A stretch of 64,000 nt of DNA from a virus, in IMG/VR virus record IMGVR_UViG_3300042197_003344, positions 1 through 64,000 of that record; one strand, 5' to 3'. Shown here one piece after another: positions 8,839 through 52,739 of this stretch. The translations under genes were made by a program, and so were the position numbers. Every line of letters starts with the position of its first letter. Within the stretch, counting starts at the first letter, position 1. Below the pieces are notes generated by a model. It ran no database searches. It saw nothing but the letters and a program-made list of their open reading frames with translations, and was not told the origin of the DNA.

Positions 8839-9039
8839 ATGAATAATCAAAAATTAAATGATCAAGATGTTCCGATTACAGAAATTTTTTATATGCAGAA
8901 ATTTATGCAAATTCAAAGACAGAATGTTGTATTATCAAATAAGTTACGAATGTTATACGAAGATCAAAATATAAAAAATATAATTGAAACTAATATAGAT
9001 AATAGTTTTTTCGATATACTTAAAGAAACACCGGCATGA
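8839..9039 (+). CDS. small hypothetical protein
   Basis: 66 aa ORF with ATGA coupling to the next gene. Confidence 0.6.
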   Translation: MNNQKLNDQDVPITEIFYMQKFMQIQRQNVVLSNKLRMLYEDQNIKNIIETNIDNSFFDILKETPA

Positions 9040-10451
9040 ATGAAATTTATTGGATGCAATCTGAAAACAGTAAAATAGGACGTTGGCAGCGTAAAATTGA
9101 AGAAGACACAGGGTCTAAAACATTCTGTGTTTTGCCCTGGATACATTTTGCTACAAGACCCAACGGAGATATGCGTCTTTGTTGTAATTCTAATAGTAGT
9201 GGTGCAGGAATAGATCACGAAATTGGTCTGGTAAAAAATGAAACGGGAAGACCGGCTAACTTCGGCAAAGAAACTCCTATGAGTGCTTGGAACAATGAAT
9301 ACATGCAAAATGTAAGAACCAGCATGCTTCAAGGTAACATACCACAAAGTTGTAAAAAATGTTTTGACGAAGAAAGCAAGGGTGTTGCTAGTAAACGTAT
9401 ATGGGAAACAGCTACCTGGGTTGAAGAAGGAATTGATCTTGCTCAACTCATTGATCAAACGTCTGAGCAAGGTACAGTTCCAGAACAATTGATTTATTTA
9501 GATCTTAGATTGGGACATACTTGCAATCTAAAATGTGTGATGTGTAGTCCTCACGACAGTAGCCAATGGGTTTCTGAACACAAAAAAATCTACCCGTTAT
9601 TTAAAAACGAAGAAATTAAAAAACAAATGTCTTGGGATAGAAAAGAATTTAATAATTTTTGGCATGAAAATCCTACATTTTGGAAAGAAATATACGCACA
9701 AATTCCTAATCTGAAACAGGTATATTTTGCAGGCGGCGAGCCTTTAATGATTCGAGAACATAAATTGTTCTTAGAAGAAATAATTCGTCAAGGATACGCG
9801 GATAAAATATTAATAAGATACAATACAAATGGCTTATTGTTAGATGAATCTATAATTGATCTATGGACAAAGTTTAAAAAAGTCAAGGTTGGATTTAGCA
9901 TCGATGCTGTCGGAGATCGCAACTACTATATTCGTTATCCTAGTGATTGGAACACCATTGAAAAAAATCTACATAGGCTAGATGATACGCCAGACAACAT
10001 ACAGGTCAGTATAGCCACTGCTATACAGATCTTGAATATAAAACATCTACCAGATTTTGCTCGTTGGAAGATACAGCAAAACTTTAAGAAAATAAATTTT
10101 GAAAATATTACTGGGGGTATACAGGCTGGAGGTGGTATTGTTAATATGCATCTATTGTATATACCTACTTTTTTAAGTATTCAATGTTTGCCTTCGGAGG
10201 ATAAAGCAGAAGTCAGACGTAAATTTGCGGAATTCGCTACATGGCTACACGAAAACTACAGACAAGATAAAGATTACTGGAAAGATAATCCTTACGGTTG
10301 GAAAAGATGGCAGGCTGTATTAGAGTTTATGGATTCTCAAGATCTCTCACATTTATTACCAGCTTTTAAAGAATACATTAATACATTAGATAATTATAGA
10401 AAAACTGATTTTAAAACAATCTTACCAGAATTGCAACATCTAATACAATAA
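9036..10451 (+). CDS. radical SAM protein with N-terminal twitch/SPASM-like domain
   Basis: FCVLPW..GDMRLCC..CKKC then CNLKCVMC, AGGEP. Confidence 0.9.
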   Translation: MNEIYWMQSENSKIGRWQRKIEEDTGSKTFCVLPWIHFATRPNGDMRLCCNSNSSGAGIDHEIGLVKNETGRPANFGKETPMSAWNNEYMQNVRTSMLQGNIPQSCKKCFDEESKGVASKRIWETATWVEEGIDLAQLIDQTSEQGTVPEQLIYLDLRLGHTCNLKCVMCSPHDSSQWVSEHKKIYPLFKNEEIKKQMSWDRKEFNNFWHENPTFWKEIYAQIPNLKQVYFAGGEPLMIREHKLFLEEIIRQGYADKILIRYNTNGLLLDESIIDLWTKFKKVKVGFSIDAVGDRNYYIRYPSDWNTIEKNLHRLDDTPDNIQVSIATAIQILNIKHLPDFARWKIQQNFKKINFENITGGIQAGGGIVNMHLLYIPTFLSIQCLPSEDKAEVRRKFAEFATWLHENYRQDKDYWKDNPYGWKRWQAVLEFMDSQDLSHLLPAFKEYINTLDNYRKTDFKTILPELQHLIQ

Positions 10452-10460
10452 AATTTATTC

Positions 10461-11354
10461 CTATAAAATCTGTTTAGTCAAAGGTATATCTGCTGCACAG
10501 GTACACCAATCTCTCGTACATATAACAGGCTCTCGAGGAGCAATGAATGTTCCTTGATATATATTACCGAGACTTCCGCCAACTCTGCAAGTAGCGCGAT
10601 GCACTTCGCCGTCCCAATTAATCATTAAACTTTCTATTCCTGCATTACATTTCCAACCCTTAAATTGATTTAAATTTTTTTTAATAATGTCGTTAGCATG
10701 AATTATGTATTCGTTATCTACTCTACAATTAGGTTTGGCAGTAGCGTCTTGAGATAAAATCCATTCTAAATCTTTACCGTCATATTTTAAGTCATCGAAA
10801 ATATTATGATCGCCGTCTGTCCATCTTATTCTTCTTACTGCATATTTTATTCCTATTTCGTTAAATTTTTTGATTACTTTTTTAACCTGAGGTATAAAAG
10901 AATGATGCGCCATTACATTTACAAAAAATTCTCTTTCAGTAGCATCGTAATATTTTAATATTGTATCTACTATTCTAGTATAGTCAAATTCGAAATGTAA
11001 ACTAAAAACCAAATGATTAAAAAACATTTCATTTTCTAAATACCATCTATAACCTCTAGTACCGTTGGTAGTAACATTTACCCAGAACACATTTTTTCGT
11101 TTAAAATAATCTAATAAATCTTCTATATCGGGATGTACGCAAGGTTCTCCTCCAGTGAGACTTATTCTTAAAGGTGTTTTTAGTTTACAGAGTTGATCTA
11201 CAGCACTTTCTAATATGTTAATATCTGTATGATTACTAACATTATCGTGAATGCTTGTGGGACAATAACTACAATCATAGTTACAACGTTTGCCCAAATT
11301 CCATTCTATTTTAATTTGATCTTGATGCGGATAAACCGGATTAATTTGTTTCAT
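10461..11354 (-). CDS. radical SAM protein
   Basis: CNYDCSYC, TGGEP; paralogue of 2609-3595. Confidence 0.9.
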   Translation of the reverse strand: MKQINPVYPHQDQIKIEWNLGKRCNYDCSYCPTSIHDNVSNHTDINILESAVDQLCKLKTPLRISLTGGEPCVHPDIEDLLDYFKRKNVFWVNVTTNGTRGYRWYLENEMFFNHLVFSLHFEFDYTRIVDTILKYYDATEREFFVNVMAHHSFIPQVKKVIKKFNEIGIKYAVRRIRWTDGDHNIFDDLKYDGKDLEWILSQDATAKPNCRVDNEYIIHANDIIKKNLNQFKGWKCNAGIESLMINWDGEVHRATCRVGGSLGNIYQGTFIAPREPVICTRDWCTCAADIPLTKQIL

Positions 11355-12267
11355 ATAATGTTGAAAATTTGGAATGATTAATTATACTTTCGTAGTACAT
11401 ATCGCTATCGAAAAACTCAATGCTTGTAATTTCAGTATCCGATCTGACAAATTCTTTGTTCCACTTTAATTTACAAATATGATTAGGTACATACCAATCG
11501 CTTACAGTAGGATGAAACGATAAAAAATCATCAGTGATTATTATTTGACCTAAAATGTATCTGCCAAAAGATAAATTATTAAGGTTATCGAGATTCACAT
11601 TATTATTTACAGCCCAGGGATAGAAATTTTTTTCGTCAAATTTTCGATAAGGATTCTCTACATGAAAAAATATACAGGTTTCGCTGTTAATGGTAGACTG
11701 TAAAACTAATTCGTCCATACTGTCATTTCCTTTATAAATTTCTAACCAATCTTTTCCTAAAGTTCCGTACCCTAAAATTAAATCACCCCATTTATGTTCT
11801 GTGGTGATCCATAATTTATGTTCTTCTTTAATTTCTGTTAATTGGGGATCCGGATCTTTCACGAAATGAATAGAACAATTATGTTCCAAAAAAGGATCTT
11901 CTTTTATATTTTCTAGACTATGAATTAATAAATTTATCATAGACCAAATTTTTTCATTTTTAAATTTTTCTTTAACAAATTTAGAATGTAGATAATTTAA
12001 ATCTTTTTGTTCGACTGGATAAGAAATTTTTTTTTGATTTACTAATTCTAAGTAGTGATTTAATTTTTCTACAGTATATTTTATTCCTAAATTATTCATA
12101 GGATATGTAAAAAAATTAGTTTTTTCATTATGTTTATTTTGCCAACTATGTTGAACAGGATTATCATTAAGTTGAAAATAAACTGAAACATATCTGCTGT
12201 TCGACCGAAAAGTTATTTTCGCAGTGTTTTTTCCTACTCTGTTTCTATAGATGTGTCTCATATCCAA
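11341..12267 (-). CDS. hypothetical protein
   Basis: 308 aa ORF overlapping both neighbours. Confidence 0.7.
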   Translation of the reverse strand: MDMRHIYRNRVGKNTAKITFRSNSRYVSVYFQLNDNPVQHSWQNKHNEKTNFFTYPMNNLGIKYTVEKLNHYLELVNQKKISYPVEQKDLNYLHSKFVKEKFKNEKIWSMINLLIHSLENIKEDPFLEHNCSIHFVKDPDPQLTEIKEEHKLWITTEHKWGDLILGYGTLGKDWLEIYKGNDSMDELVLQSTINSETCIFFHVENPYRKFDEKNFYPWAVNNNVNLDNLNNLSFGRYILGQIIITDDFLSFHPTVSDWYVPNHICKLKWNKEFVRSDTEITSIEFFDSDMYYESIINHSKFSTLYETN

Positions 12268-13517
12268 TTTTTAAACTCCGGAACAACATCAAATAGATTT
12301 TGATTTCTTGTAACATCTAATTTACGATTAAATTCTAAGAAGTCCGACCATAAATGACTTTGATCTTTAGCATTGAGATAGTTAATATTATCTTGTATCT
12401 GTTGATAAGTTATTCTTTCCAATTGGGGGTACTTCTTAACCAGTTCAAAATCTTTAACACGATGTCTAATTTTTTCTAATTTCTCTACTGCTTTTAACTG
12501 CAATACTCGAGGCAATACCTGCGCCGATAAACAATTTGGGTAACTTACACGATGGCTGTAAAAGACTATTCCCATTTTGTTTAAGAAATATTCAATACAT
12601 TCTGATGCCTGTAAAATATTACCAGCCTGTGCAGTGAACGCACCTACTACTCTGCTGACATTAGGAATAGTTTGTATTTCTTTGATATTTTGTTCTACTA
12701 AAGTAAAATCGCTATTACCGCGAATATAATTATACACTTCGTGAATACCATCGAGACTTACATTTACTGCTACAGATTTAAAGTGTGGCCAGTAGTCGTG
12801 TATGGTTCTACCGCCTTTGATACCTAGTGTAGTGCCGTTAGTAGCATACTTTATTTCAATGTTTTGTCCATAGGGTTTCAACATATCTAGTATGCGATAA
12901 TGTTGTGGATCCATCAACGGTTCTCCGCCAGCGAATTCTACACGTCTAAAGTATGGTAATAGTTTTTCAAAACTCGTCCACCAATTGTCTGTATCTTCAA
13001 AAGGACAGAGATATTTACTAGTGTTTAGTCCTAATTTGTTAATTACCGGAACAAGATAATTATTTTCTTTTTTATAAAATTCTTCTACCTGATCCCAATC
13101 ATTCCAACTAGTGCTGTCCATAGGGTGACACATACGGCATTTCAAATTACAGAGATTATTAAGTTTGATTTCCATGGTAGGAAACTCAAATGGCATGGTG
13201 TAATCATCACGTAGTTGTTCCAAAGCATTGGGATAAAGATTGATGCGTGCCTCTGGAATTACACCGTTAATGTGTCGTTGGCGCAGACTTTCAACACCTT
13301 GGTCTTCCAAATCAAAACAGGGCTTGCACACTTTTGGTCGTTCGTTGGATAATATCTGTCTACGAACTTCTCGCATAGTATCATTGTTCCATAGTTCTTC
13401 TAAACTATTGTTTTGTATGAATCCAATTGGAGCACTGCGACAACAAACTTTAACAGCACCGTCTTCCCTAGTTGCTAATCCTGTAAAAGGATGCATACAA
13501 AATGTTTTACTTGTCAT
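12258..13517 (-). CDS. radical SAM protein with N-terminal twitch domain
   Basis: FCMHPF..VCC..CKPC; CNLKCRMC; AGGEP. Confidence 0.9.
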   Translation of the reverse strand: MTSKTFCMHPFTGLATREDGAVKVCCRSAPIGFIQNNSLEELWNNDTMREVRRQILSNERPKVCKPCFDLEDQGVESLRQRHINGVIPEARINLYPNALEQLRDDYTMPFEFPTMEIKLNNLCNLKCRMCHPMDSTSWNDWDQVEEFYKKENNYLVPVINKLGLNTSKYLCPFEDTDNWWTSFEKLLPYFRRVEFAGGEPLMDPQHYRILDMLKPYGQNIEIKYATNGTTLGIKGGRTIHDYWPHFKSVAVNVSLDGIHEVYNYIRGNSDFTLVEQNIKEIQTIPNVSRVVGAFTAQAGNILQASECIEYFLNKMGIVFYSHRVSYPNCLSAQVLPRVLQLKAVEKLEKIRHRVKDFELVKKYPQLERITYQQIQDNINYLNAKDQSHLWSDFLEFNRKLDVTRNQNLFDVVPEFKNWI

Positions 13518-14707
13518 AAGTACTTTTTAATTTCTTGATAATAGTCGGGAAACGTTTTACCGAAGCTTTCGTTTCGATATTCGTCTCTCTGTTTTACTTC
13601 TCGCCAAAATAGTTTCCATTTAACATAATTAAATTTACTATTTTGTAAAAGTTTTATTACAGAATCTCGATCGATCTCCCATTGAGGATTTTTACTTTTA
13701 TGTTCTAACAATCTTTTTATTATAACTAGTTTTAATTTATTCGGCATAAATTTTATACTTCTTCCATCATGAACATTGTTTAATATTACCAAAGAACTAT
13801 TATTTGTACAATATTCATACGTTTCGGCTAAATCCCAGATACTAAACATAGACACAGATATCACAGTATTAATTTGCCAAGAAGGATCAAATTTTTTAAT
13901 TCTCTGTAAATTTTTTTCCCATGTTATAAAATTTCCCGGATGCCGAATATACGTAAATTTTTCATTAACAGCATCTATACTAAAATTTAAAACTACATGA
14001 TCAAATTCTTTTAGATAATGAATAGTTTTTTCAGGATACAAAGTTCCATTAGTATTATAAGTAATTTCCATATTTTTTGAATATCCCAAATCTATTATTT
14101 TTGTTATAAATTGTTGATTGTACTTAACATACATAGGTTCCCCACCGGAAAATTGCAGTCGAATTACTTCAGGAAAAATTTTTAAAACATCTTTCCAAAA
14201 ATAATCATTTTCGGGATGAAAACTTTCTTCTCTAATTTTAGAACTGTTGTCTAATAAAACTTTAATTTTACTAACTGTTGATCTTTTTAATTCTTCAATT
14301 TCGAATTGACTGGATCTATTTTCCCAACATATTCTGCATTTCAAATTACAGGTATTTCCTAATGCTATGTAAGCTAATTTAGGAAGCTGATTATTATCGG
14401 ATACTAAATGTCCCCATACTCTGTTACTAATCATTCTAAGACTTTCTTTTCCAGAATCTTCGTCTTCCCAGCATTGATGGCAACTTTTTACTCTTATTCC
14501 AGAATCTAAATTTTTAATGAGTTTTTTTCTATCTTCGCTATTCCAAAAATTTATTATAGATTCTTTGTTTATTGTTGAATTCTTTTTTGCTGTGAGATAA
14601 CTATAGGTAGGATTTTTACAACACGGAGTAACTCGACCGTCTGACTCGACATTAAGATTAAGATACGGATTTACACACCAAGTATTGCTTTTATTTTCAA
14701 TGTTCAT
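13514..14707 (-). CDS. radical SAM protein with N-terminal twitch domain
   Basis: WCVNPY..PCC..CHQC; CNLKCRIC; start taken at MNIENK. Confidence 0.9.
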   Translation of the reverse strand: MNIENKSNTWCVNPYLNLNVESDGRVTPCCKNPTYSYLTAKKNSTINKESIINFWNSEDRKKLIKNLDSGIRVKSCHQCWEDEDSGKESLRMISNRVWGHLVSDNNQLPKLAYIALGNTCNLKCRICWENRSSQFEIEELKRSTVSKIKVLLDNSSKIREESFHPENDYFWKDVLKIFPEVIRLQFSGGEPMYVKYNQQFITKIIDLGYSKNMEITYNTNGTLYPEKTIHYLKEFDHVVLNFSIDAVNEKFTYIRHPGNFITWEKNLQRIKKFDPSWQINTVISVSMFSIWDLAETYEYCTNNSSLVILNNVHDGRSIKFMPNKLKLVIIKRLLEHKSKNPQWEIDRDSVIKLLQNSKFNYVKWKLFWREVKQRDEYRNESFGKTFPDYYQEIKKYL

Positions 14708-15380
14708 TTTTTTTAATTGCCCATTCTCTTTCTTTACACCAGAAACATTTTCCGCATAATGGAATGTGTTGTCCTGACTTATAAGTTTTATAGTTAATAC
14801 CTTCAAATTCTCCTTCGCAACTTCTAGTTAAATTTAAAAGGTCTTTTATACGGTATTTGTAATATTGTTTTATAATCCAATCTTTTCTAGTACGAACAAA
14901 AGGATGACAGATATGTATTCCGTCATGAATAAAGTGAGGAGGGATATGTCCTTCGTCCCGATCACTTAGCGATCCTTCAATTTTAATATCCGGGTTTCGA
15001 TTAATTCCGCCGTAAATTGCATCTAACTTATATTTGTGAGCGATATATTCGTTGTGTGATCTTAAAATAATTTGATTACCACTCTTTAATTTTCCGTATT
15101 CGTCCACGATTGTAGGACCTTTATCTGCCCACTCTAATTCGGGGGGAATAAGATTTCGATGAACATAAAATTTATTTTTGAAGTGACTTTTAAACCAATC
15201 TATTACTTGATCGGCAATGTATTCTTGCCACGGTCTAGTTCTCCATAAGCGGATCTGATTTGTAAAGTGTATTTCTGCATCAGTCTCGGAACAAATTAAG
15301 AAGGCTAAAAGAGTACTGTCAGCACCACCGCTAATGCTTATTCCAATTCTTTTCCAATTTTTATCTATAAAAAGGTTCAT
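14697..15380 (-). CDS. PP-loop ATPase (QueC/ExsB-like)
   Basis: SGGADS; C-terminal TRSC...CGKCFWC. Confidence 0.75.
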   Translation of the reverse strand: MNLFIDKNWKRIGISISGGADSTLLAFLICSETDAEIHFTNQIRLWRTRPWQEYIADQVIDWFKSHFKNKFYVHRNLIPPELEWADKGPTIVDEYGKLKSGNQIILRSHNEYIAHKYKLDAIYGGINRNPDIKIEGSLSDRDEGHIPPHFIHDGIHICHPFVRTRKDWIIKQYYKYRIKDLLNLTRSCEGEFEGINYKTYKSGQHIPLCGKCFWCKEREWAIKKNEH

Positions 15381-30354: not shown

Positions 30355-30833
30355 AGGGATATCACGGACAAATAGAAGATTTTTGGTCTGACTATTTGCA
30401 AAGCTATGTTTACCAACAACAGATACCTTATTCGGGAATGAGAGAATCATGGCACGAAAATTTCAATAACGGTCATCTTTTACAAAGCTTTGATGATCAG
30501 TTACCTCCAATATGGAAAAAATTTCAATCTTCTTTAAACGTATATAACGGCACTGTGGGTTGGATTAACATTCGACCTAATCAAATCATTGCACCTCATT
30601 TTGATCATTTTTATACACTGAAACAAAAACTAGGGACTACAGTCGAAAAATGTATAAGATATTTAATATTTTTAGAAGATTGGAAATTTGGCCAATACGT
30701 AGAGTTTGAAAATCTTTCTATTAGAAAATGGAAAAAGGGAGATGTTTGGTACTTTGATCATACCGAAGAGCATTGGGCTGTTAATGCAAGTAATTTTGAT
30801 TTTCATACTTGTCAGGTTAATACAATAAGATGA
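30351..30833 (+). CDS. 2OG-Fe(II)/cupin oxygenase
   Basis: PHFD...HWAVNAS. Confidence 0.75.
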   Translation: MKGYHGQIEDFWSDYLQSYVYQQQIPYSGMRESWHENFNNGHLLQSFDDQLPPIWKKFQSSLNVYNGTVGWINIRPNQIIAPHFDHFYTLKQKLGTTVEKCIRYLIFLEDWKFGQYVEFENLSIRKWKKGDVWYFDHTEEHWAVNASNFDFHTCQVNTIR

Positions 30834-32638
30834 AATCTATATATTTTTTTCAGTGTAACTATTCTGCTAAATTCGGCGAAAGAACACAGTATTGGTTACC
30901 ATATTCGGTTGGTTGTCTTTGGGCTTATGCTCAGCAGTTCGATGATATAAAATTAAATTGGGAAGTAAAAGGAAAAATTTATAGGAGAGATCCTATTGAT
31001 ACCGTATTAAAAAAAATAGAAGACCCTACCGTATGTGTTTTTAGTTGCTACTGTTGGAATGAACAATATAATTTAACGGCTGCAAAAAAAATTAAGGAAT
31101 TATGGCCTGAGACACATATAGTATTTGGAGGACCTCAATCAGGAAGTAATCATTTAAAATATGATTTTATTGATTCTATTGTTTTCGGAGAAGGTGAAGA
31201 AAGTTTTTTAGAAATTCTTAGAACTATAGATGCAGGCAACAAACTTCAAGAGTTATATACGAAAAAAAGATTAGAGAATTTAGAAATTCCTAGTCCCTAC
31301 CTTATTGGTTTTTTTGACGATATCATTGCCGAATCTCCAGAAGATTTTTTTCAAGGAGTACTAGAAACTAATAGAGGATGTCCGTATTCTTGTACTTTTT
31401 GCGATTGGGGTAGTACTACCTACGGCAAGGTAAAAAGATTTAATTTAGAACGGGTAAAAGATGAAATAGAATGGGTAACAAAGAATCCTATTACTACTCT
31501 GTTTATTACAGATGCAAATTTTGGGGCGTTCAAAGAAAGAGATTTAGAAATAGCTACTATATTAGAGAAATATAGTAAAAATTCATGTTTAGAATATGTA
31601 AATGTTACCTATGCAAAAAATAGTAATGAACACATATTTAAAGTTGCTAAGGCCCTGGGTCCTTTGGGTCGAGGAGTTACTCTTAGTGTACAGAGCATGA
31701 ATCCAAAGACTCTTGAGGTTATAAAAAGAGATAATATGGCCAGTAACGATCTGAAAAATATGTATGCGTTGAGTCATCAATATGGAGTTACAACATACAC
31801 TGAAGTAATACTAGGGTTACCTGAAGAAACACTAGAAAGTTTTATAGATGGTATATCCGAATTATTAGAGCTAGGTCAGCATACTCAATGTGAAATGTAT
31901 CTTGCAAATGTAATGGAGAATACTGAATTAAATCAGGTTCAAAAATTTAAGTACGGTATAAAAACAATTAGATGCGAAAATTATCAACCATTCTCTTTTA
32001 ATGATTTAAGCAATATTCCGGAATATACAGATTTAGTATGTGAAACTAACACGATGAGTAAAAATGATCTAACCGATGCTTATATGTTTCATTGGACCGT
32101 ACAAAATTTTCATTATCTAGGTTGGAGTCAAATAATTTCTAAATATTGTAGAAATGTGTTAGATATACCTTATAAAAAATTCTACAGCAAACTTTTAAAT
32201 TCGTTGAAACAAGATCAAGGAATCTTAGGAAATGAGTATAGAGAAGTAGAAAAAAATATTAGATATTTATTTGATACAGGGACCTTAATGGTTGATATTC
32301 CTGTTCATCATTATAACGGAAAAAGTCATTCATTGATCTATGATAATTTAGAAACAGTTTTAATTTTTATAATTGAGTTTTCTAAATCTCTCGGTTATAT
32401 AGATCCTACAATAATCGAAATTCAAAAAAGATTTGTTATGAATCCTAAATATTTGCCTCTTGACTATATCGAATCAAATTATAATTTAGAAAATTGGCAA
32501 GAAAAGAAAACAGCTTACAAGATAGAATGCCAGTTCAAAGATTTTGTACCTACTTATACAAATATTTGGGTTTTAAGAAGATCGGGAAAATTAAAAAATA
32601 AAATTATAGAACTCAATGCGGAAGTATTTATAAAATAA
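30830..32638 (+). CDS. B12-binding radical SAM protein
   Basis: N-terminal cobalamin-binding domain (SCYCWN, GGPQ, GEGE); RGCPYSCTFC. Confidence 0.9.
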   Translation: MKSIYFFQCNYSAKFGERTQYWLPYSVGCLWAYAQQFDDIKLNWEVKGKIYRRDPIDTVLKKIEDPTVCVFSCYCWNEQYNLTAAKKIKELWPETHIVFGGPQSGSNHLKYDFIDSIVFGEGEESFLEILRTIDAGNKLQELYTKKRLENLEIPSPYLIGFFDDIIAESPEDFFQGVLETNRGCPYSCTFCDWGSTTYGKVKRFNLERVKDEIEWVTKNPITTLFITDANFGAFKERDLEIATILEKYSKNSCLEYVNVTYAKNSNEHIFKVAKALGPLGRGVTLSVQSMNPKTLEVIKRDNMASNDLKNMYALSHQYGVTTYTEVILGLPEETLESFIDGISELLELGQHTQCEMYLANVMENTELNQVQKFKYGIKTIRCENYQPFSFNDLSNIPEYTDLVCETNTMSKNDLTDAYMFHWTVQNFHYLGWSQIISKYCRNVLDIPYKKFYSKLLNSLKQDQGILGNEYREVEKNIRYLFDTGTLMVDIPVHHYNGKSHSLIYDNLETVLIFIIEFSKSLGYIDPTIIEIQKRFVMNPKYLPLDYIESNYNLENWQEKKTAYKIECQFKDFVPTYTNIWVLRRSGKLKNKIIELNAEVFIK

Positions 32639-32660
32639 AAGCCCTTAACGGGCTTTTATT
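32636..32660. terminator. bidirectional rho-independent terminator
   Basis: TAAAAGCCC-TTAAC-GGGCTTTTA between convergent genes. Confidence 0.75.
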
Positions 32661-34312
32661 TAAGGATTTAAACCATAATACGGAATAGCATAATCTGTTC
32701 CGCCAATATTTAATTTGAGATAACCAACTACTCCGCCGCCGACATTTACTTGACCTGATCCTCCTCCGGCCGCCACACTGTTATTTGCTACATGAACTAA
32801 TTGTGTATGATCTACTTTAAATGCCGATACTAGAGATCCGGCATTATTAAGTGTCGATATTTCGAAAGCTCCTGGAACAGCTCCTCCTGTAGTAACAGTT
32901 CCGCTAGCTTTCGCTGTGACAAGTACCGCAGGAATGTGTGTAGTGCCGTTATATCCCATATAGTAATCTGAGGCAATCGCATCACCGGTTAAAATCACAG
33001 TTGGACTATTTATAGTTCCTCTAGATCTGAGTTGTAGTTTAGGAGATCCGTCAACTTCGCTATTAGCTAGCTTTATAGTAAATAAATCATAGGAATCATT
33101 TACATCCCCTTCCGATTCTATTAATATACCACCTAGGTTTTTATCTATCAAAATAGAATTAGTTTCTATTGGTCCTACGATTTTCCCATCTACACCGTTA
33201 ACAAGAAGGGTAGAATCTTGTGCGAACACAGATCCTATAGCATCACCAATATGTAATCCTGTTAGGTTACCTGTAACATTACCTGTTAGGTTACCTGTAA
33301 CATTACCTGTTAGGTTACCTGTAACATTACCTGTTAGGTTACCTGTAACATTACCTGTTAGGTTACCTGTAACATTACCTGTTAGGTTACCTGTAACATT
33401 ACCTACTAGATTGCCTGTAAATCCTCCTGATGCATTCACCGATTGATTCAATTGATCTACGATCACGGTGCTGTCTTCAGCTAATACCGAACCGTAAATA
33501 TCACCGGTAACAATACCAACAAACGAAGCATCATCTCCTGTGGTGCCTGAATTCAACACAGTAACGCCATTAGTAGATCTTACATTACCAAAGACAGCAC
33601 CGGTCATAGCACCAGTAACATTGCCAGTGAGATTACCAACAAATCCTCCCGGAGCAGTAATAATACCTGTTCCTGAATTTAATAAAACGGTACTGTCGTC
33701 TGCTACGATGTTTATATTGTAATTACTGCCGGTTATTACACCGTCGCCTGATCCCGAACCAATAGCTACACCGCCAACCGTGGAGCCAGCTGGTAAATTA
33801 ATAGCTGAGCCTGTAGCTGTTATTACAGCGTTTCCCACATAAAGACTGGAACCGCTCAAATATAAATCTTTAAATCTTTTAGCAGCACTGCCGAGATCAT
33901 AGGTTGAATCTACATAAGGTATTACATTGCTTCTAATAGTATTATCTAAATTTATAGCACCTAATACACTATCTACTAACACTGTGCTAGTATCATCTGT
34001 GAATACAGAACCTTTGATATCTAGGACAACGACCCCACCCCCTACAGTAGCAGAAATTTTATTAGCAGCGTCGTCGTAGGTAAACGAAATACCGGTATGT
34101 GTACCAGAGGAAAGAACACTGGCTACAGCGTCTTGTGCATCTTCTGTTCCGAAAGCTGTAACAGCAGTTCCGCCAAGGGTGCCAGTAACGCCCCCGTCTG
34201 TGCTGTCACCGACAAAAACTTGTTTGAGTGTTGTATCATAGATCAATTCGCCTATGATGGGCCTAATTGACGTTCTTTCCGCTGTTGTTCCTCTGCGAAT
34301 TTGTAAAGGCAT
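32660..34312 (-). CDS. tail fibre / virion structural protein
   Basis: N-terminal LQIRRGT..GEL.YDT..VGD (Mtd_N-like), YDLGS..KRFKDLYL, G/T/N-rich repeats. Confidence 0.8.
   Translation of the reverse strand: MPLQIRRGTTAERTSIRPIIGELIYDTTLKQVFVGDSTDGGVTGTLGGTAVTAFGTEDAQDAVASVLSSGTHTGISFTYDDAANKISATVGGGVVVLDIKGSVFTDDTSTVLVDSVLGAINLDNTIRSNVIPYVDSTYDLGSAAKRFKDLYLSGSSLYVGNAVITATGSAINLPAGSTVGGVAIGSGSGDGVITGSNYNINIVADDSTVLLNSGTGIITAPGGFVGNLTGNVTGAMTGAVFGNVRSTNGVTVLNSGTTGDDASFVGIVTGDIYGSVLAEDSTVIVDQLNQSVNASGGFTGNLVGNVTGNLTGNVTGNLTGNVTGNLTGNVTGNLTGNVTGNLTGNVTGNLTGLHIGDAIGSVFAQDSTLLVNGVDGKIVGPIETNSILIDKNLGGILIESEGDVNDSYDLFTIKLANSEVDGSPKLQLRSRGTINSPTVILTGDAIASDYYMGYNGTTHIPAVLVTAKASGTVTTGGAVPGAFEISTLNNAGSLVSAFKVDHTQLVHVANNSVAAGGGSGQVNVGGGVVGYLKLNIGGTDYAIPYYGLNP
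33258..33404 (-). repeat. six perfect 24-bp tandem repeats encoding (GNLTGNVT)n
   Basis: CCTGTTAGGTTACCTGTAACATTA x6 on the + strand. Confidence 0.95.
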
Positions 34313-39762: not shown

Positions 39763-39839
39763 TGGTACGGATGGTGGGATTCGAACCCACGAAACTCAGA
39801 TTTTAAGTCTGATACGTATACCTATTCCGTCACATCCGT
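39763..39839 (-). tRNA. tRNA-Leu(TAA), short variable loop
   Basis: Loop CTTAAAA; variable region GTTTC. Confidence 0.85.
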
Positions 39840-39923: not shown

Positions 39924-39997
39924 TGGGGTGAAGCCGGGAATCGAACCCTGCCTTACTGTTTCACAGACAGCCGTGCAACCATTACACTAGCAACACC
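39924..39997 (-). tRNA. tRNA-His(GTG)
   Basis: Loop CTGTGAA, G-1:C73; two U-U mismatches in the acceptor stem. Confidence 0.85.
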
Positions 39998-41318: not shown

Positions 41319-41396
41319 TGGTACCCCTCGTCGGATTCGAACCGACACGATTCTCCTTTTGAGAGAGACGCCTCATACCAATTGGGCTAGAGGGGC
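41319..41396 (-). tRNA. tRNA-Leu(CAA), short variable loop
   Basis: Loop CTCAAAA; variable region ATCGT. Confidence 0.85.
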
Positions 41397-41562: not shown

Positions 41563-41661
41563 TGGTGCCTCTGGCAGGACTCGAACCTGCACACGCCGGC
41601 TTATCTGGCCGGTGCTTTGACGAGGTATAAGCTCGTTTCTTTACCATTAAGCTACAGAGGC
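41563..41661 (-). tRNA. tRNA with UAU anticodon (Ile codon AUA) and a long variable arm
   Basis: ACGAG-CTTATAC-CTCGT; variable hairpin CCGGC-CAGATAA-GCCGG. Confidence 0.8.
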
Positions 41662-41989: not shown

Positions 41990-42078
41990 TGGTGGACCCT
42001 GAAGGAATCGAACCTAATCGCCAGCCACCCAACATATCAAGGCAACAGATTTACAGTCTGCCGTTGGGAACAGGATCC
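41990..42078 (-). tRNA. aberrant tRNA-Tyr(GTA) lacking a D-arm
   Basis: Acceptor GGATCCTG/CAGGGTCC-A-CCA, GCAGA-CTGTAAA-TCTGT, TTCGATT loop; no D hairpin. Confidence 0.7.
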
Positions 42079-42311
42079 AAAATTTGTAACACTCTCCGAC
42101 TATGTCTGTCAACCGCTTACAAGGCAGTAAGGAGAGTGTGTAATTAAGCATTCTCCTTTATGATTTTAGACGCCGTCGCAGGGCGAATGGTGAATGCTTA
42201 ATTACGCTAGTTTTTTTAGTCCCACAAGAGGGATTCCATCCACTAGGCCGCCCGTTTACGTTTTTATTACAGTGTGTCGCTAGGACCTCGTTCCCTATCC
42301 ACACTTGAGTC

Positions 42312-43157: not shown

Positions 43158-43751
43158 TTAGGTAATATGGTCTGCCACATTAAGATCTACACATTCTTCT
43201 GCTGTCAGATAAACATCAGACGGTGGCAGCAATTTTTTCTTGATCACGCCGGCAGCTAATCCGGTGGCTTCTTTCAATATCACTACCATTTTTTCATTAC
43301 AGATATCATTTTCTTTCATGGTCGCTTTGAGATCATGATATTTGTCACTCATAGTTTCGCTGAATTGATGACACATAAAACTGGTATTTCTGGCAGCATA
43401 TCTTTCGCCTTTGGTTCCTGCTGCAAAGATTAAAAATGCTGCACTCATCACTGAACCCAGGGCTATAGTTCTTACAGAATGACGACTATTTCTAATCACA
43501 TCGATCAGTGCAAATGCTTCGTAGAGATTACCGCCCGTTGAGTTTATGTACAGAGTAAGAACTTTTTCTTTGGCATCTAGATTTTCGTATAAAATCCATT
43601 TGATGCATTCTGAAATATTGCTCTCTTCAATTTCCCCAAAAAGATAATGTATGTTGCTTTCGAGTAATTTAATGTTGACGCGATCTTCCGCATTAAAATC
43701 ATCTGCTTTTTTGGTCACGTTTGCTCCTCTGGATTCACTATTACTTATCAT
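43158..43751 (-). CDS. clpP: ClpP-family protease
   Basis: LYINSTGG, GSVMSAA (Ser), FMCHQ (His), DVYLTAEE (Asp). Confidence 0.85.
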   Translation of the reverse strand: MISNSESRGANVTKKADDFNAEDRVNIKLLESNIHYLFGEIEESNISECIKWILYENLDAKEKVLTLYINSTGGNLYEAFALIDVIRNSRHSVRTIALGSVMSAAFLIFAAGTKGERYAARNTSFMCHQFSETMSDKYHDLKATMKENDICNEKMVVILKEATGLAAGVIKKKLLPPSDVYLTAEECVDLNVADHIT

Positions 43752-48883: not shown

Positions 48884-49081
48884 ATGTTATATGTTGATTA
48901 TACCTGGGATTGTAGTGAAAGAGGAATCCTTCTTGATGAAGAATTTAACAGCGACAAGCTGGGCTGGAAAAGCGGAGATTATTTTCAGTTAATCAACATA
49001 AACGGAAGGCAGATATTAAGAAAAGTAGGAAATGTTCAGCAGTTCATACTAGAAGGAGCGGATAAAAATGAACAAGAATGA
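48884..49081 (+). CDS. hypothetical protein
   Basis: 65 aa, SD AGGA. Confidence 0.65.
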   Translation: MLYVDYTWDCSERGILLDEEFNSDKLGWKSGDYFQLININGRQILRKVGNVQQFILEGADKNEQE

Positions 49082-50678: not shown

Positions 50679-52739
50679 TCATTTTTCGTGAGCGATAAAT
50701 TCGCCATTCCAGTCAGGACCTAGATCTTGCTGTTTCATAAAGTCACAGCGTTCAATCCACATCTTGTAATACTTGTCCATCTGGCCGTCGAAGGAACCTT
50801 TTAATTCTCCGCAGAGAATTTTAGCCGCATCAAATTGTTTTTCTTTGTATAGTTGATGCATCTTATTGTGTGTTTCCAGTGACTTATAGTAGGCTGTTTC
50901 ATTGCCTCTGATTCTTAGCACAGTGTAGATGCTGTCCGCTACTGTCTTGCCTTTTGGTTGTAGGTTATCCAAGTATAGGTAGAAGAAATCGTTGGCTGTT
51001 CTATTGTATGTTTCTGCTCCGATGATGGCCAACACACCATAGGCCTTACAACGTGCTTCTAGTCGTGCAGCAGTTGAAACCATATCGCCTAAGATATCAT
51101 ATCCGTGCCTAGCAGTCGAACCCATCTCACCAATATATCCATCACCGGTATTGCAACCCCAGCCCATCGCGGCAGGAGGTAAGCCTAGTGCTTCTTTTTC
51201 TTTAGTAAACGTCTGCACAGCATCTAACATTTCTAAACCAACTTTGACGATAGTATGAGCATGATTGGGATCATCCAACGGAGCACCATGCATGTGCATA
51301 CTAGCATCGCCTACATACTTGATGACCATACCGTTGGCATTGATGATAGGAATAGTAATAGCATCCATGTAGCCGTTCATATATTTGGCTAGTCCTTCTG
51401 GTCCACCATTACCTGGTTTATCAAAGTGTTCCCCAATTGGGGTGAATCCACGTAGATCGCTGAACATAACTGATACATCTTTTTTAACACCTTTCTTGAT
51501 TAAATCTGGATTCTCTTGTAACAGTCTCACGACTTCTGGAGAACAATAGCCAGCGAACTGTTTCTTTATGGCCTGCTTCTGTAAGAACTCTGAGACGAAC
51601 TTGATACCGTAGGCATGCAGAGCGACCAAGAGTAGGCCAACTGCAGGGGCAGTAGCGTCAAGTAACCATAGATTGAAATCGAACATAAGCCAACTGCCAA
51701 CAGCACTACCAGCCACGATAATAATCGTTGTTGCCAAACCTGCATACACATACCTCGTTAAGAAAATTAATAATACACCCGCCACTGCCAGTATTAAAAT
51801 TTCAAGACCATCTGCATAGTCGGGTCTTTGTATAGTAACACCGTTAAACATAGTACCTAGCACAGCGGCCTGTACTTCGTGCGGCCAAACACTACCCACT
51901 GCTGTGGGCACAGGATTACCTAACCCTGCTGCTGCTACTCCCACTATTACCACAGCACCCCCAAAATCTTTTGGTAGTTCTGTCATCGACACACTTTTAG
52001 ATTGTTGGCTCCAGTCAATCCACACACGACCTAGATTGTCTGTGCTGATAGGACCAAACTTGGGTATACGCATTTTTTCTACGCCGTTGTCGTTCAATTT
52101 AATTTGAACAGTTGAATCCTGTGCCGCCACACGCAGAGCTTCCATGGCCAAGCTAGGATATATCTTACCGTCTACAGCTACCAATAAAGGCATCCTACGA
52201 TTAACACCATCCACTTCTGGTAGAGTATTGACTACGCCCACGCCAGCAGCCTTTTGTTCTATGCTAGCGATATTGGCCATGATACCAGGATATTGAATTA
52301 TTCTATCCTGATAGTCTGATCCTATGACTGCGGTTCCTGGTTGCTTTGCTTCGTTTTTATTTCTATCCGCAGGCATATTAGGCAGTATCACAGGGTACCT
52401 AGACAGTGTGTCTGCTAGAGCTCGATCTCCGCCTTGTCTATCCTTTTCTGTCATCAGCACATTGAAAACCACTAGCCCAGCATTTCTTAGATAAAGATTT
52501 TCTATAAGTGCTGCATATATTTCACGGTTAAATGGCCATTGTCCGTATTTGTCTAGAGCATTTTCATCTATGTTTACCGTGACAATGTTATTTTCTGTGG
52601 GAATTTTGTTGACTATGAGTGTGTCAAAATATCTTAATCTTATACTTTCTACAAAGACAGGATCGGCTATTCTTATACTTACTATAAGTGCCAATGTTAT
52701 AATAGCAGTCCAAGGACTTAAGAGTATTTTTTTCATCAT
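50679..52739 (-). CDS. CHASE2-domain class III adenylate cyclase
   Basis: GQWPFNR CHASE2, TM helices, MFSDLRGFT, KYVGD, YDILGD..AARLE. Confidence 0.9.
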   Translation of the reverse strand: MMKKILLSPWTAIITLALIVSIRIADPVFVESIRLRYFDTLIVNKIPTENNIVTVNIDENALDKYGQWPFNREIYAALIENLYLRNAGLVVFNVLMTEKDRQGGDRALADTLSRYPVILPNMPADRNKNEAKQPGTAVIGSDYQDRIIQYPGIMANIASIEQKAAGVGVVNTLPEVDGVNRRMPLLVAVDGKIYPSLAMEALRVAAQDSTVQIKLNDNGVEKMRIPKFGPISTDNLGRVWIDWSQQSKSVSMTELPKDFGGAVVIVGVAAAGLGNPVPTAVGSVWPHEVQAAVLGTMFNGVTIQRPDYADGLEILILAVAGVLLIFLTRYVYAGLATTIIIVAGSAVGSWLMFDFNLWLLDATAPAVGLLLVALHAYGIKFVSEFLQKQAIKKQFAGYCSPEVVRLLQENPDLIKKGVKKDVSVMFSDLRGFTPIGEHFDKPGNGGPEGLAKYMNGYMDAITIPIINANGMVIKYVGDASMHMHGAPLDDPNHAHTIVKVGLEMLDAVQTFTKEKEALGLPPAAMGWGCNTGDGYIGEMGSTARHGYDILGDMVSTAARLEARCKAYGVLAIIGAETYNRTANDFFYLYLDNLQPKGKTVADSIYTVLRIRGNETAYYKSLETHNKMHQLYKEKQFDAAKILCGELKGSFDGQMDKYYKMWIERCDFMKQQDLGPDWNGEFIAHEK

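Follow-up and report, generated by a model that had tools for sequence, protein, structure and literature searches.

A tRNA-Tyr gene of phages whose core fold lacks a D-arm and is closed by a pseudoknot

We describe a tRNA-Tyr(GUA) gene from a freshwater virus whose RNA has no D-arm, and whose core is closed by a pseudoknot between a long-range helix, H2, and a short variable stem, V. Covariation support for this fold is strong, and the RNA is a new structural variant of tRNA. To our knowledge, elongator tRNAs outside mitochondria are held to share one cloverleaf, and the exceptions that we know of, tRNA-Sec and the 8/4 and 9/3 tRNAs, alter stem lengths but not connectivity. The gene probably encodes a working elongator tRNA-Tyr, presumably used in translation, with a core wired unlike that of every canonical tRNA.

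Results

The stretch of DNA that was analysed, referred to here as the window, covers the first 64 kb of an IMG/VR virus record of 77,298 bp, for which CheckV estimates a completeness of 22%. The record comes from fresh water, and the best holders of this DNA are freshwater and lake metagenomes. An array of tRNA genes lies at 36.2-42.1 kb of the window on the minus strand. ARAGORN called 29 tRNAs in the window, Tyr not among them, while the other 13.3 kb of the record gave no call; a tRNA-Ile(UAU) at 41566-41661 was added to the array by Rfam. The rewired gene heads the array at 41990-42078, spans 89 nt including an encoded CCA, and scores 102.6 bits with a covariance model (R1) of 61 homologues. 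A preliminary description of the window had called it the only tRNA-Tyr and the first tRNA after an attenuator. Neither ARAGORN nor Rfam found another GUA tRNA in the 77-kb record, so it is indeed the sole one, and it does stand first in the array, but the attenuator found no support, our scans having detected no terminator-like site on the tRNA strand. The strand also needed correction, the gene being on the minus strand. A search with PF00579 found no TyrRS gene in the 77-kb record, a result which says nothing given that the record is a 22% fragment.

Directly upstream of the gene, at 42079-42260 on the minus strand, is a structured leader with two long hairpins (MFE -55.2 kcal/mol, z -3.55). 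Within it lie TTGACA and, 18 nt further on, TACAAA, the latter ending approximately 6 nt before the tRNA, and in many relatives the motif GAGAGTGT-TACAAA stands in front of canonical as well as rewired Tyr genes. No sigma-70-type promoter was found by the criteria of our scan, and terminator-like hairpins were found on the opposite strand only.

Standard tRNA finders do not recognise the gene. It received no call from ARAGORN in the window and remained below threshold with the Rfam tRNA model RF00005; its closest match in the Rfam clan was tRNA-Sec (RF01852), with 24.1 bits where the gathering score is 47. In default, metazoan-mitochondrial and low-threshold modes ARAGORN either gave nothing or forced a wrong fold on it, namely a tRNA-Asn at -ps80 and a mitochondrial tRNA-Ser on the opposite strand, both of which we rejected. 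At none of the 81 phage loci described below was the rewired gene itself called by ARAGORN, and inventories of phage or prophage tRNAs made with ARAGORN or Rfam will list Tyr as missing.

Several features described earlier can be read directly from the sequence: an 8-bp acceptor stem, the absence of a D-arm, and the presence of only TTCCCAAC, 8 nt, between the acceptor and anticodon stems, with no local D stem-loop carrying G18G19. The acceptor 5' strand (RNA 1-8, 42071-42078) pairs with 41994-42001, with one G-U in the window, and is followed by a UU connector (RNA 9-10, 42069-42070) and by CCCAAC, the 5' strand of H2 (RNA 11-16, 42063-42068), which pairs with 42028-42033. The anticodon arm (42044-42062) has a 6-bp stem (RNA 17-22 with 30-35) and a 7-nt loop, CTGTAAA, with U33, the anticodon G34 U35 A36 (42052-42054) and A37. 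The 27-nt 'variable' stretch after this arm holds GTTGGG. It begins with GCC, the 5' strand of V (RNA 36-38, 42041-42043), which pairs with 42020-42022, and continues with an A/U-rich linker (RNA 39-45, 42034-42040) to the H2 3' strand GTTGGG (RNA 46-51, 42028-42033), which thus lies within the variable loop. Directly after that strand come YGG (RNA 52-54, 42025-42027) and then GGC, the 3' strand of V (RNA 57-59, 42020-42022), whose pairing crosses H2. The T arm (42002-42016) has a stem of U-U, A-U, G-C and G-C in the window and the loop TTCGATT, and the 3' end (41990-42001) comprises the acceptor 3' strand, the discriminator A (41993) and the encoded CCA (41990-41992).

In one sequence such complementarity is weak evidence. 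When the variable stretch is shuffled with its composition preserved, 5.8% of the shuffles contain a perfect partner for CCCAAC, and the single-sequence fold does not exceed shuffles in stability (z-score -0.73). Homologues were therefore needed. Searches of INPHARED phages with megablast and blastn found no homologue of the rewired gene, only of the neighbouring ordinary tRNAs. We used as an anchor for relatives the neighbouring ClpP-like protease gene (43158-43751, minus strand), which lies approximately 1.1 kb upstream of the array. In the syntenic relatives found in this way the array likewise opens with tRNA-Tyr, followed by tRNA-Asp, and their Tyr gene is of the ordinary class II type, 84-89 nt in length. 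In L071/L116 this canonical gene sits between flanks that are near-identical to those of the window up to the tRNA ends. A scan of Tyr-Asp junctions then gave D-armless versions within the same flanks (L120, L135) and also elsewhere (L125, L131). The same slot and the same flanks thus hold either form, and the canonical and rewired genes behave as alternative alleles.

With two gapped patterns that placed no constraint on the helix strands we obtained 84 matches, corresponding to 81 accepted loci and 63 distinct sequences on IMG/VR phage contigs (more than 80 contigs). Sixty-one of the 63 were kept; L194 and L199, which have no acceptor pairing and are seemingly unrelated, were left out. Because these patterns prescribed the T loop, the anticodon loop and parts of the anticodon stem, the conservation seen there is by construction. 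The anticodon GTA is found in every member of the phage set, which was selected by this motif; bacterial copies found with R1, which does not require GTA, carry it too. Members of the family measure 85-93 nt.

MAFFT was run on the 61 sequences with no information on structure, and pairs were then counted for the five-helix structure. Pairing over all helices amounts to 96.6% of cells, compared with 81.2% for column shuffles, and double changes occur at 21 of 27 pairs; none of 500 column shuffles reached any of the measures, and sliding the partner by 1-3 columns lowered pairing from 96.6% to 35-62%. All eight pairs of the acceptor helix show double changes (99.0% paired), including the eighth, which is GC in 49 members, AU in 7, UG in 3 and UA in 1. 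The preliminary description had proposed covariation of CCCAAC/GTTGGG as a check, and the check was clear: the six pairs of H2 are 99.5% paired, five of them change on both sides (the sixth is an invariant C-G), and no shuffle of 500 matched this. H2 occurs in 24 complementary strand-pair versions among the 61 homologues, such as CCCTAC/GTAGGG, CTCTAC/GTAGAG, CCACAC/GTGTGG and CGACAC/GTGTCG. The three pairs of V (98.3% paired) all show double changes; its strands come in 10 combinations, at least six of them fully complementary, with GCC/GGC, GGC/GCC, GTC/GAC and GAC/GTC besides longer forms, some of 4-6 bp. The anticodon stem is fully paired (100%, six pairs, double changes at three), its outermost pair being G-U in 51 members, A-U in 8, G-C in 1 and U-A in 1. 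The T stem is the least regular helix, with 81.1% pairing over four layers and double changes at two: its two inner pairs do not vary, the pair beside them is A-U in 45 members, U-A in 5, C-G in 1, G-C in 1 and unpaired in 9, and the outer layer is paired in just 24 of 61, most members having U-U there, as the window does.

Outside the helices, the connector is TT in 54 of the 61 homologues, the linker between the V 5' strand and the H2 3' strand is 7-8 nt long in 50 of 61 and variable in sequence, and in 61/61 the GG of YGG is present with a T or C before it. The discriminator A73 is present in 61/61, G1-C72 in 60/61, and CCA is encoded in 52/61. One phage member (L201, 6125-6212, minus strand) has C1-G72 in place of G1-C72 and does not encode CCA.

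These data bear on whether the gene is a decaying tRNA-Tyr pseudogene, in which the D loop and the 3' D strand were deleted and the complementarity arose by chance. Such a reading would accommodate the U-U in the T stem, the rejection of the gene by tRNA finders and the finding that a match to CCCAAC, present in the above fraction of shuffles, is not rare, but it is barely credible when there are 61 distinct homologues as well as bacterial copies, when four helices show compensatory changes, and when lengths are conserved and several positions invariant. The earlier proposal of a re-wired fold rather than decay is upheld by the covariation of H2 and of all eight acceptor pairs, by the invariant A73 and by the way in which the gene completes arrays for 20 amino acids that otherwise lack Tyr (see below).

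The fold is more elaborate than had been proposed. The helix CCCAAC/GTTGGG is the rewiring helix, as described, but it is half of a pseudoknot, interleaved with the covarying V. Along the RNA the strands are ordered H2 5', V 5', H2 3' and V 3', therefore the two helices cross and the core is a pseudoknot, in the first loop of which the anticodon arm sits. V, with its 3 bp, occupies the place of the canonical variable arm, and its loop of approximately 18 nt is tied into H2. The same long-range pairing could also be drawn as a nested D-armless fold, in which CCCAAC/GTTGGG extends the anticodon stem with a large bulge and V does not form simultaneously, so that there is no pseudoknot. The nested MFE structure of the single sequence indeed gives the long-range helix without V, and V has just 3 bp; however, the pairing and the double changes at all of its pairs extend over six complementary sequence pairs, and GCC...GGC is the variable stem in canonical phage tRNA-Tyr, for which reasons we consider the nested fold very unlikely and retain the pseudoknot.

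We then considered the distribution of the gene as evidence for its function. A canonical tRNA-Tyr was absent from the fetched stretch at 78 of the 81 rewired loci and present at 3; as the phage records are fragments, a canonical gene may lie elsewhere in these genomes. Among the 21 arrays with at least 22 tRNAs called by ARAGORN, Tyr was missing in 20, and in 10 of the 21, the window included, it was the sole missing amino acid. Contigs of four metatranscriptome libraries cover copies that are approximately 92% identical, including one double change, A14U/U48A; we take these contigs as weak evidence because the libraries may contain DNA, and because contigs do not show ends, strand or level; intergenic bins left uncovered by them carry no weight either way.

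The gene could instead encode a structured tRNA-like RNA that acts outside translation, either as a decoy for a nuclease directed against tRNA-Tyr or for a tRNA-binding factor, or as a processing or regulatory element which heads the operon. This would fit with the failure of tRNA models to recognise the gene, its position as the first of the array behind a structured leader, the presence of a canonical tRNA-Tyr beside the bacterial copies, and the importance of phage tRNA-Tyr against a retron effector that depletes tRNA-Tyr (PMC11555353). Nevertheless, the gene takes the site of the canonical tRNA-Tyr and fills arrays that are short of Tyr alone, features for charging and for EF-Tu are kept (A73, G1-C72, CCA and the 12-layer acceptor/T branch), and a decoy for an anticodon nuclease needs no covarying 8-bp acceptor. 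We consider a role outside translation unlikely, and a working elongator tRNA-Tyr is the reading that we prefer.

A pattern search of bacterial assemblies found the rewired fold in eight genomes of Planctomycetota or Phycisphaerae, one being the chromosome CP030884.1, in one proteobacterial MAG and in the cultured Tateyamaria omphalii KCTC 12333. Fifteen bacterial copies share the layout, and H2 has 5-6 of its 6 pairs in the 11 that parsed. With R1, strong matches (71-86 bits) were obtained in 6 of 151 sampled Planctomycetota genomes, all others scoring at most 38 bits, and among 121 genomes of the Tateyamaria family T. omphalii alone matched. The Planctomycetota copies sit in tRNA arrays. Both CP030884.1 and T. 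omphalii have a canonical tRNA-Tyr besides the rewired copy, and the rewired gene in cells is therefore a sporadic extra copy, for which horizontal acquisition is the simplest explanation. In T. omphalii the rewired copy is at about 48964-49054 of NZ_BMWT01000003.1, a contig that also holds the canonical one. No mobile-element genes were found within 3 kb of the T. omphalii copy.

For T. omphalii we had entertained the idea that the rewired gene is the sole tRNA-Tyr, as an inventory made with RF00005 gave 41 tRNAs for 19 amino acids, with Tyr alone absent. The idea was rejected when BLAST with the gene of a relative found a canonical tRNA-Tyr there. The gap in the inventory is an artefact of the search filter, because the canonical Tyr of the relative was also missed by that method; pattern searches for canonical Tyr are likewise unreliable. 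Having a cultured carrier, T. omphalii KCTC 12333, makes the function of the rewired tRNA directly testable. In the same genome, at G002:C5:210300-210700 on the minus strand (L329), we noticed what looks like the 3' piece of a tRNA, which has a T arm and ends much like GGTCCGCCA; ARAGORN gives no call for it, and it may be part of a two-piece tmRNA.

Discussion

One close counterpart of the rewired gene is the canonical class II tRNA-Tyr (GUA) of bacteria and phages. Both share the sequence of the anticodon arm, U33, A37, A73, G1-C72, the encoded CCA and the T loop, as well as a GCC...GGC variable stem right after the anticodon stem and, in related phages, the same genomic slot. In contrast, the rewired form has an 8/4 rather than a 7/5 acceptor/T arrangement and no D stem-loop, and its variable loop of approximately 18 nt, compared with 3-4 nt in the canonical form, supplies one strand of a 6-bp helix.

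How such an RNA might build an L-shape can be proposed from the order of its strands. Covariation shows that the acceptor and T stems, with 8 and 4 layers, keep the usual 12-layer branch, that RNA 11-16, after the UU connector, enter the anticodon stem directly while pairing with 46-51 of the enlarged variable loop, and that V (36-38 with 57-59) forms alongside H2, interleaved with it. V would keep its usual position. The 5' strand of H2 would run unbroken into the anticodon stem, as nucleotides 22-25 of a normal tRNA do, and its 3' strand would lead away from the anticodon stem and then into YGG, in the manner of nucleotides 10-13 followed by the D-loop G18G19. H2 would probably stack on the anticodon stem where a D stem normally lies. 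Its 3' strand and YGG would substitute for segment 10-19 of a normal tRNA, and the invariant GG would dock against the T loop, at the elbow, as a stand-in for G18G19. The 8th acceptor pair and the 4-layer T stem may shift the exit of the 5' strand one step toward the elbow, where H2 starts. If this model is right, the 5' D strand and the GG of the D loop have been relocated into the variable loop. Host TyrRS could then charge the rewired tRNA by way of A73, G1-C72, the GUA anticodon and the variable stem, and the charged tRNA would decode UAY for the phage.

Precedents exist for parts of this architecture. Turnip yellow mosaic virus (TYMV)-type tRNA-like structures, located in the 3' UTRs of plant RNA viruses, build an acceptor stem with a pseudoknot and are a precedent for tRNA mimicry of this kind. 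The permuted tRNA genes of red algae are a precedent for changed connectivity, but they are processed back to a normal cloverleaf, whereas here the mature RNA itself would carry the change. Like the rewired gene, the tRNA-Sec family (RF01852) has an acceptor of 8 bp, a connector of 2 nt that leads into a 6-nt strand, and a long variable region; the rewired gene differs in its anticodon, GUA rather than UCA, and lacks the local D stem of 6 bp and its loop of 4 nt. Metazoan mitochondrial D-armless tRNAs, such as mt-tRNA-Ser(AGY) and the nematode and arachnid forms, in which an unpaired connector replaces the D-arm (PMC7609411), set the precedent for a functional tRNA without a D stem-loop. Those are small, organellar and flexible, whereas the rewired RNA is full-length, belongs to phages and bacteria, and has a replacement strand that is paired.

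The (8/4) tRNA-Ser, tRNA-His and allo-tRNA of bacteria and phages keep a cloverleaf with a D-arm (Mukai et al. 2017, PMC5389517). They have in common with the rewired gene the 12-bp branch, in which the outer T layer of the rewired form is often non-standard, as well as their occurrence in phage tRNA clusters and the fact that standard finders miss or misread them. They retain the D-arm and an ordinary, free long variable arm, whereas the variable loop of the rewired gene is engaged in H2, and neither a Tyr species nor a pseudoknot is described among them in PMC5389517. Our search of the literature, with a coverage that was incomplete and leaves novelty unproven, found no tRNA in which variable-loop pairing replaces the D-arm and no such phage tRNA-Tyr. 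A widespread family of this kind, which takes the place of the canonical gene in complete tRNA sets of phages, would demonstrate that another strand topology can also give the L-shape while the identity marks for Tyr are kept, and the rewired scaffold could serve tRNA engineering.

Why a phage should carry such a form invites a more speculative reading. Phage tRNA-Tyr was shown to rescue phages from a retron effector which depletes tRNA-Tyr (PMC11555353), which makes a role in counter-defence conceivable. The rewired core may possibly be an adaptation in a contest over tRNA-Tyr, accepted by TyrRS, EF-Tu and the ribosome and evading a nuclease directed against tRNA-Tyr or a factor that reads the D-arm; we put this forward tentatively, as a possibility worth considering rather than as the expected outcome. 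If true, it would explain how alleles are swapped at one locus, how the form came to spread over phage backbones that are unrelated, and why bacteria have sporadically captured it, and it would mean that a natural tRNA with permuted core connectivity offers a scaffold distinct from all host tRNAs.

Other tRNAs of these arrays also have unusual shapes. The tRNA-Ile(UAU) of the window, on the minus strand and approximately 96 nt long, has a hairpin of about 26 nt in its variable region and hence a class II-like shape; it scores 59.8 bits with the Rfam tRNA model and was missed by ARAGORN, which calls a 92-nt tRNA-Ile(tat) in relatives. Conversely, class I-shaped tRNA-Leu genes of 73-79 nt with a short variable loop are present in the window (41319-41396 and 39763-39839, minus strand), and clusters of such short tRNA-Leu genes, with 2-4 isoacceptors, lie directly beside the rewired tRNA-Tyr in Planctomycetota arrays (L224, 2223-2672; L225, L233, L253 and L258). 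Class II tRNAs seem to be systematically remodelled in these arrays. The tRNA-His at 39925-39997 (minus strand) has two U-U mismatches in its acceptor as drawn by ARAGORN; (8/4) tRNA-His is known from phages (PMC5389517).

Further from the array, the window encodes four radical-SAM proteins (9036-14806 and 30830-32638), two of them with SPASM and one with a B12-binding domain, in a region of low GC content (approximately 30%). It also encodes a CHASE2-adenylate/guanylate cyclase protein (50679-52739, minus strand) and a protein with an Mtd_N domain (32660-34312, minus strand), the N-terminus of the major tropism determinant, as in the targets of diversity-generating retroelements.
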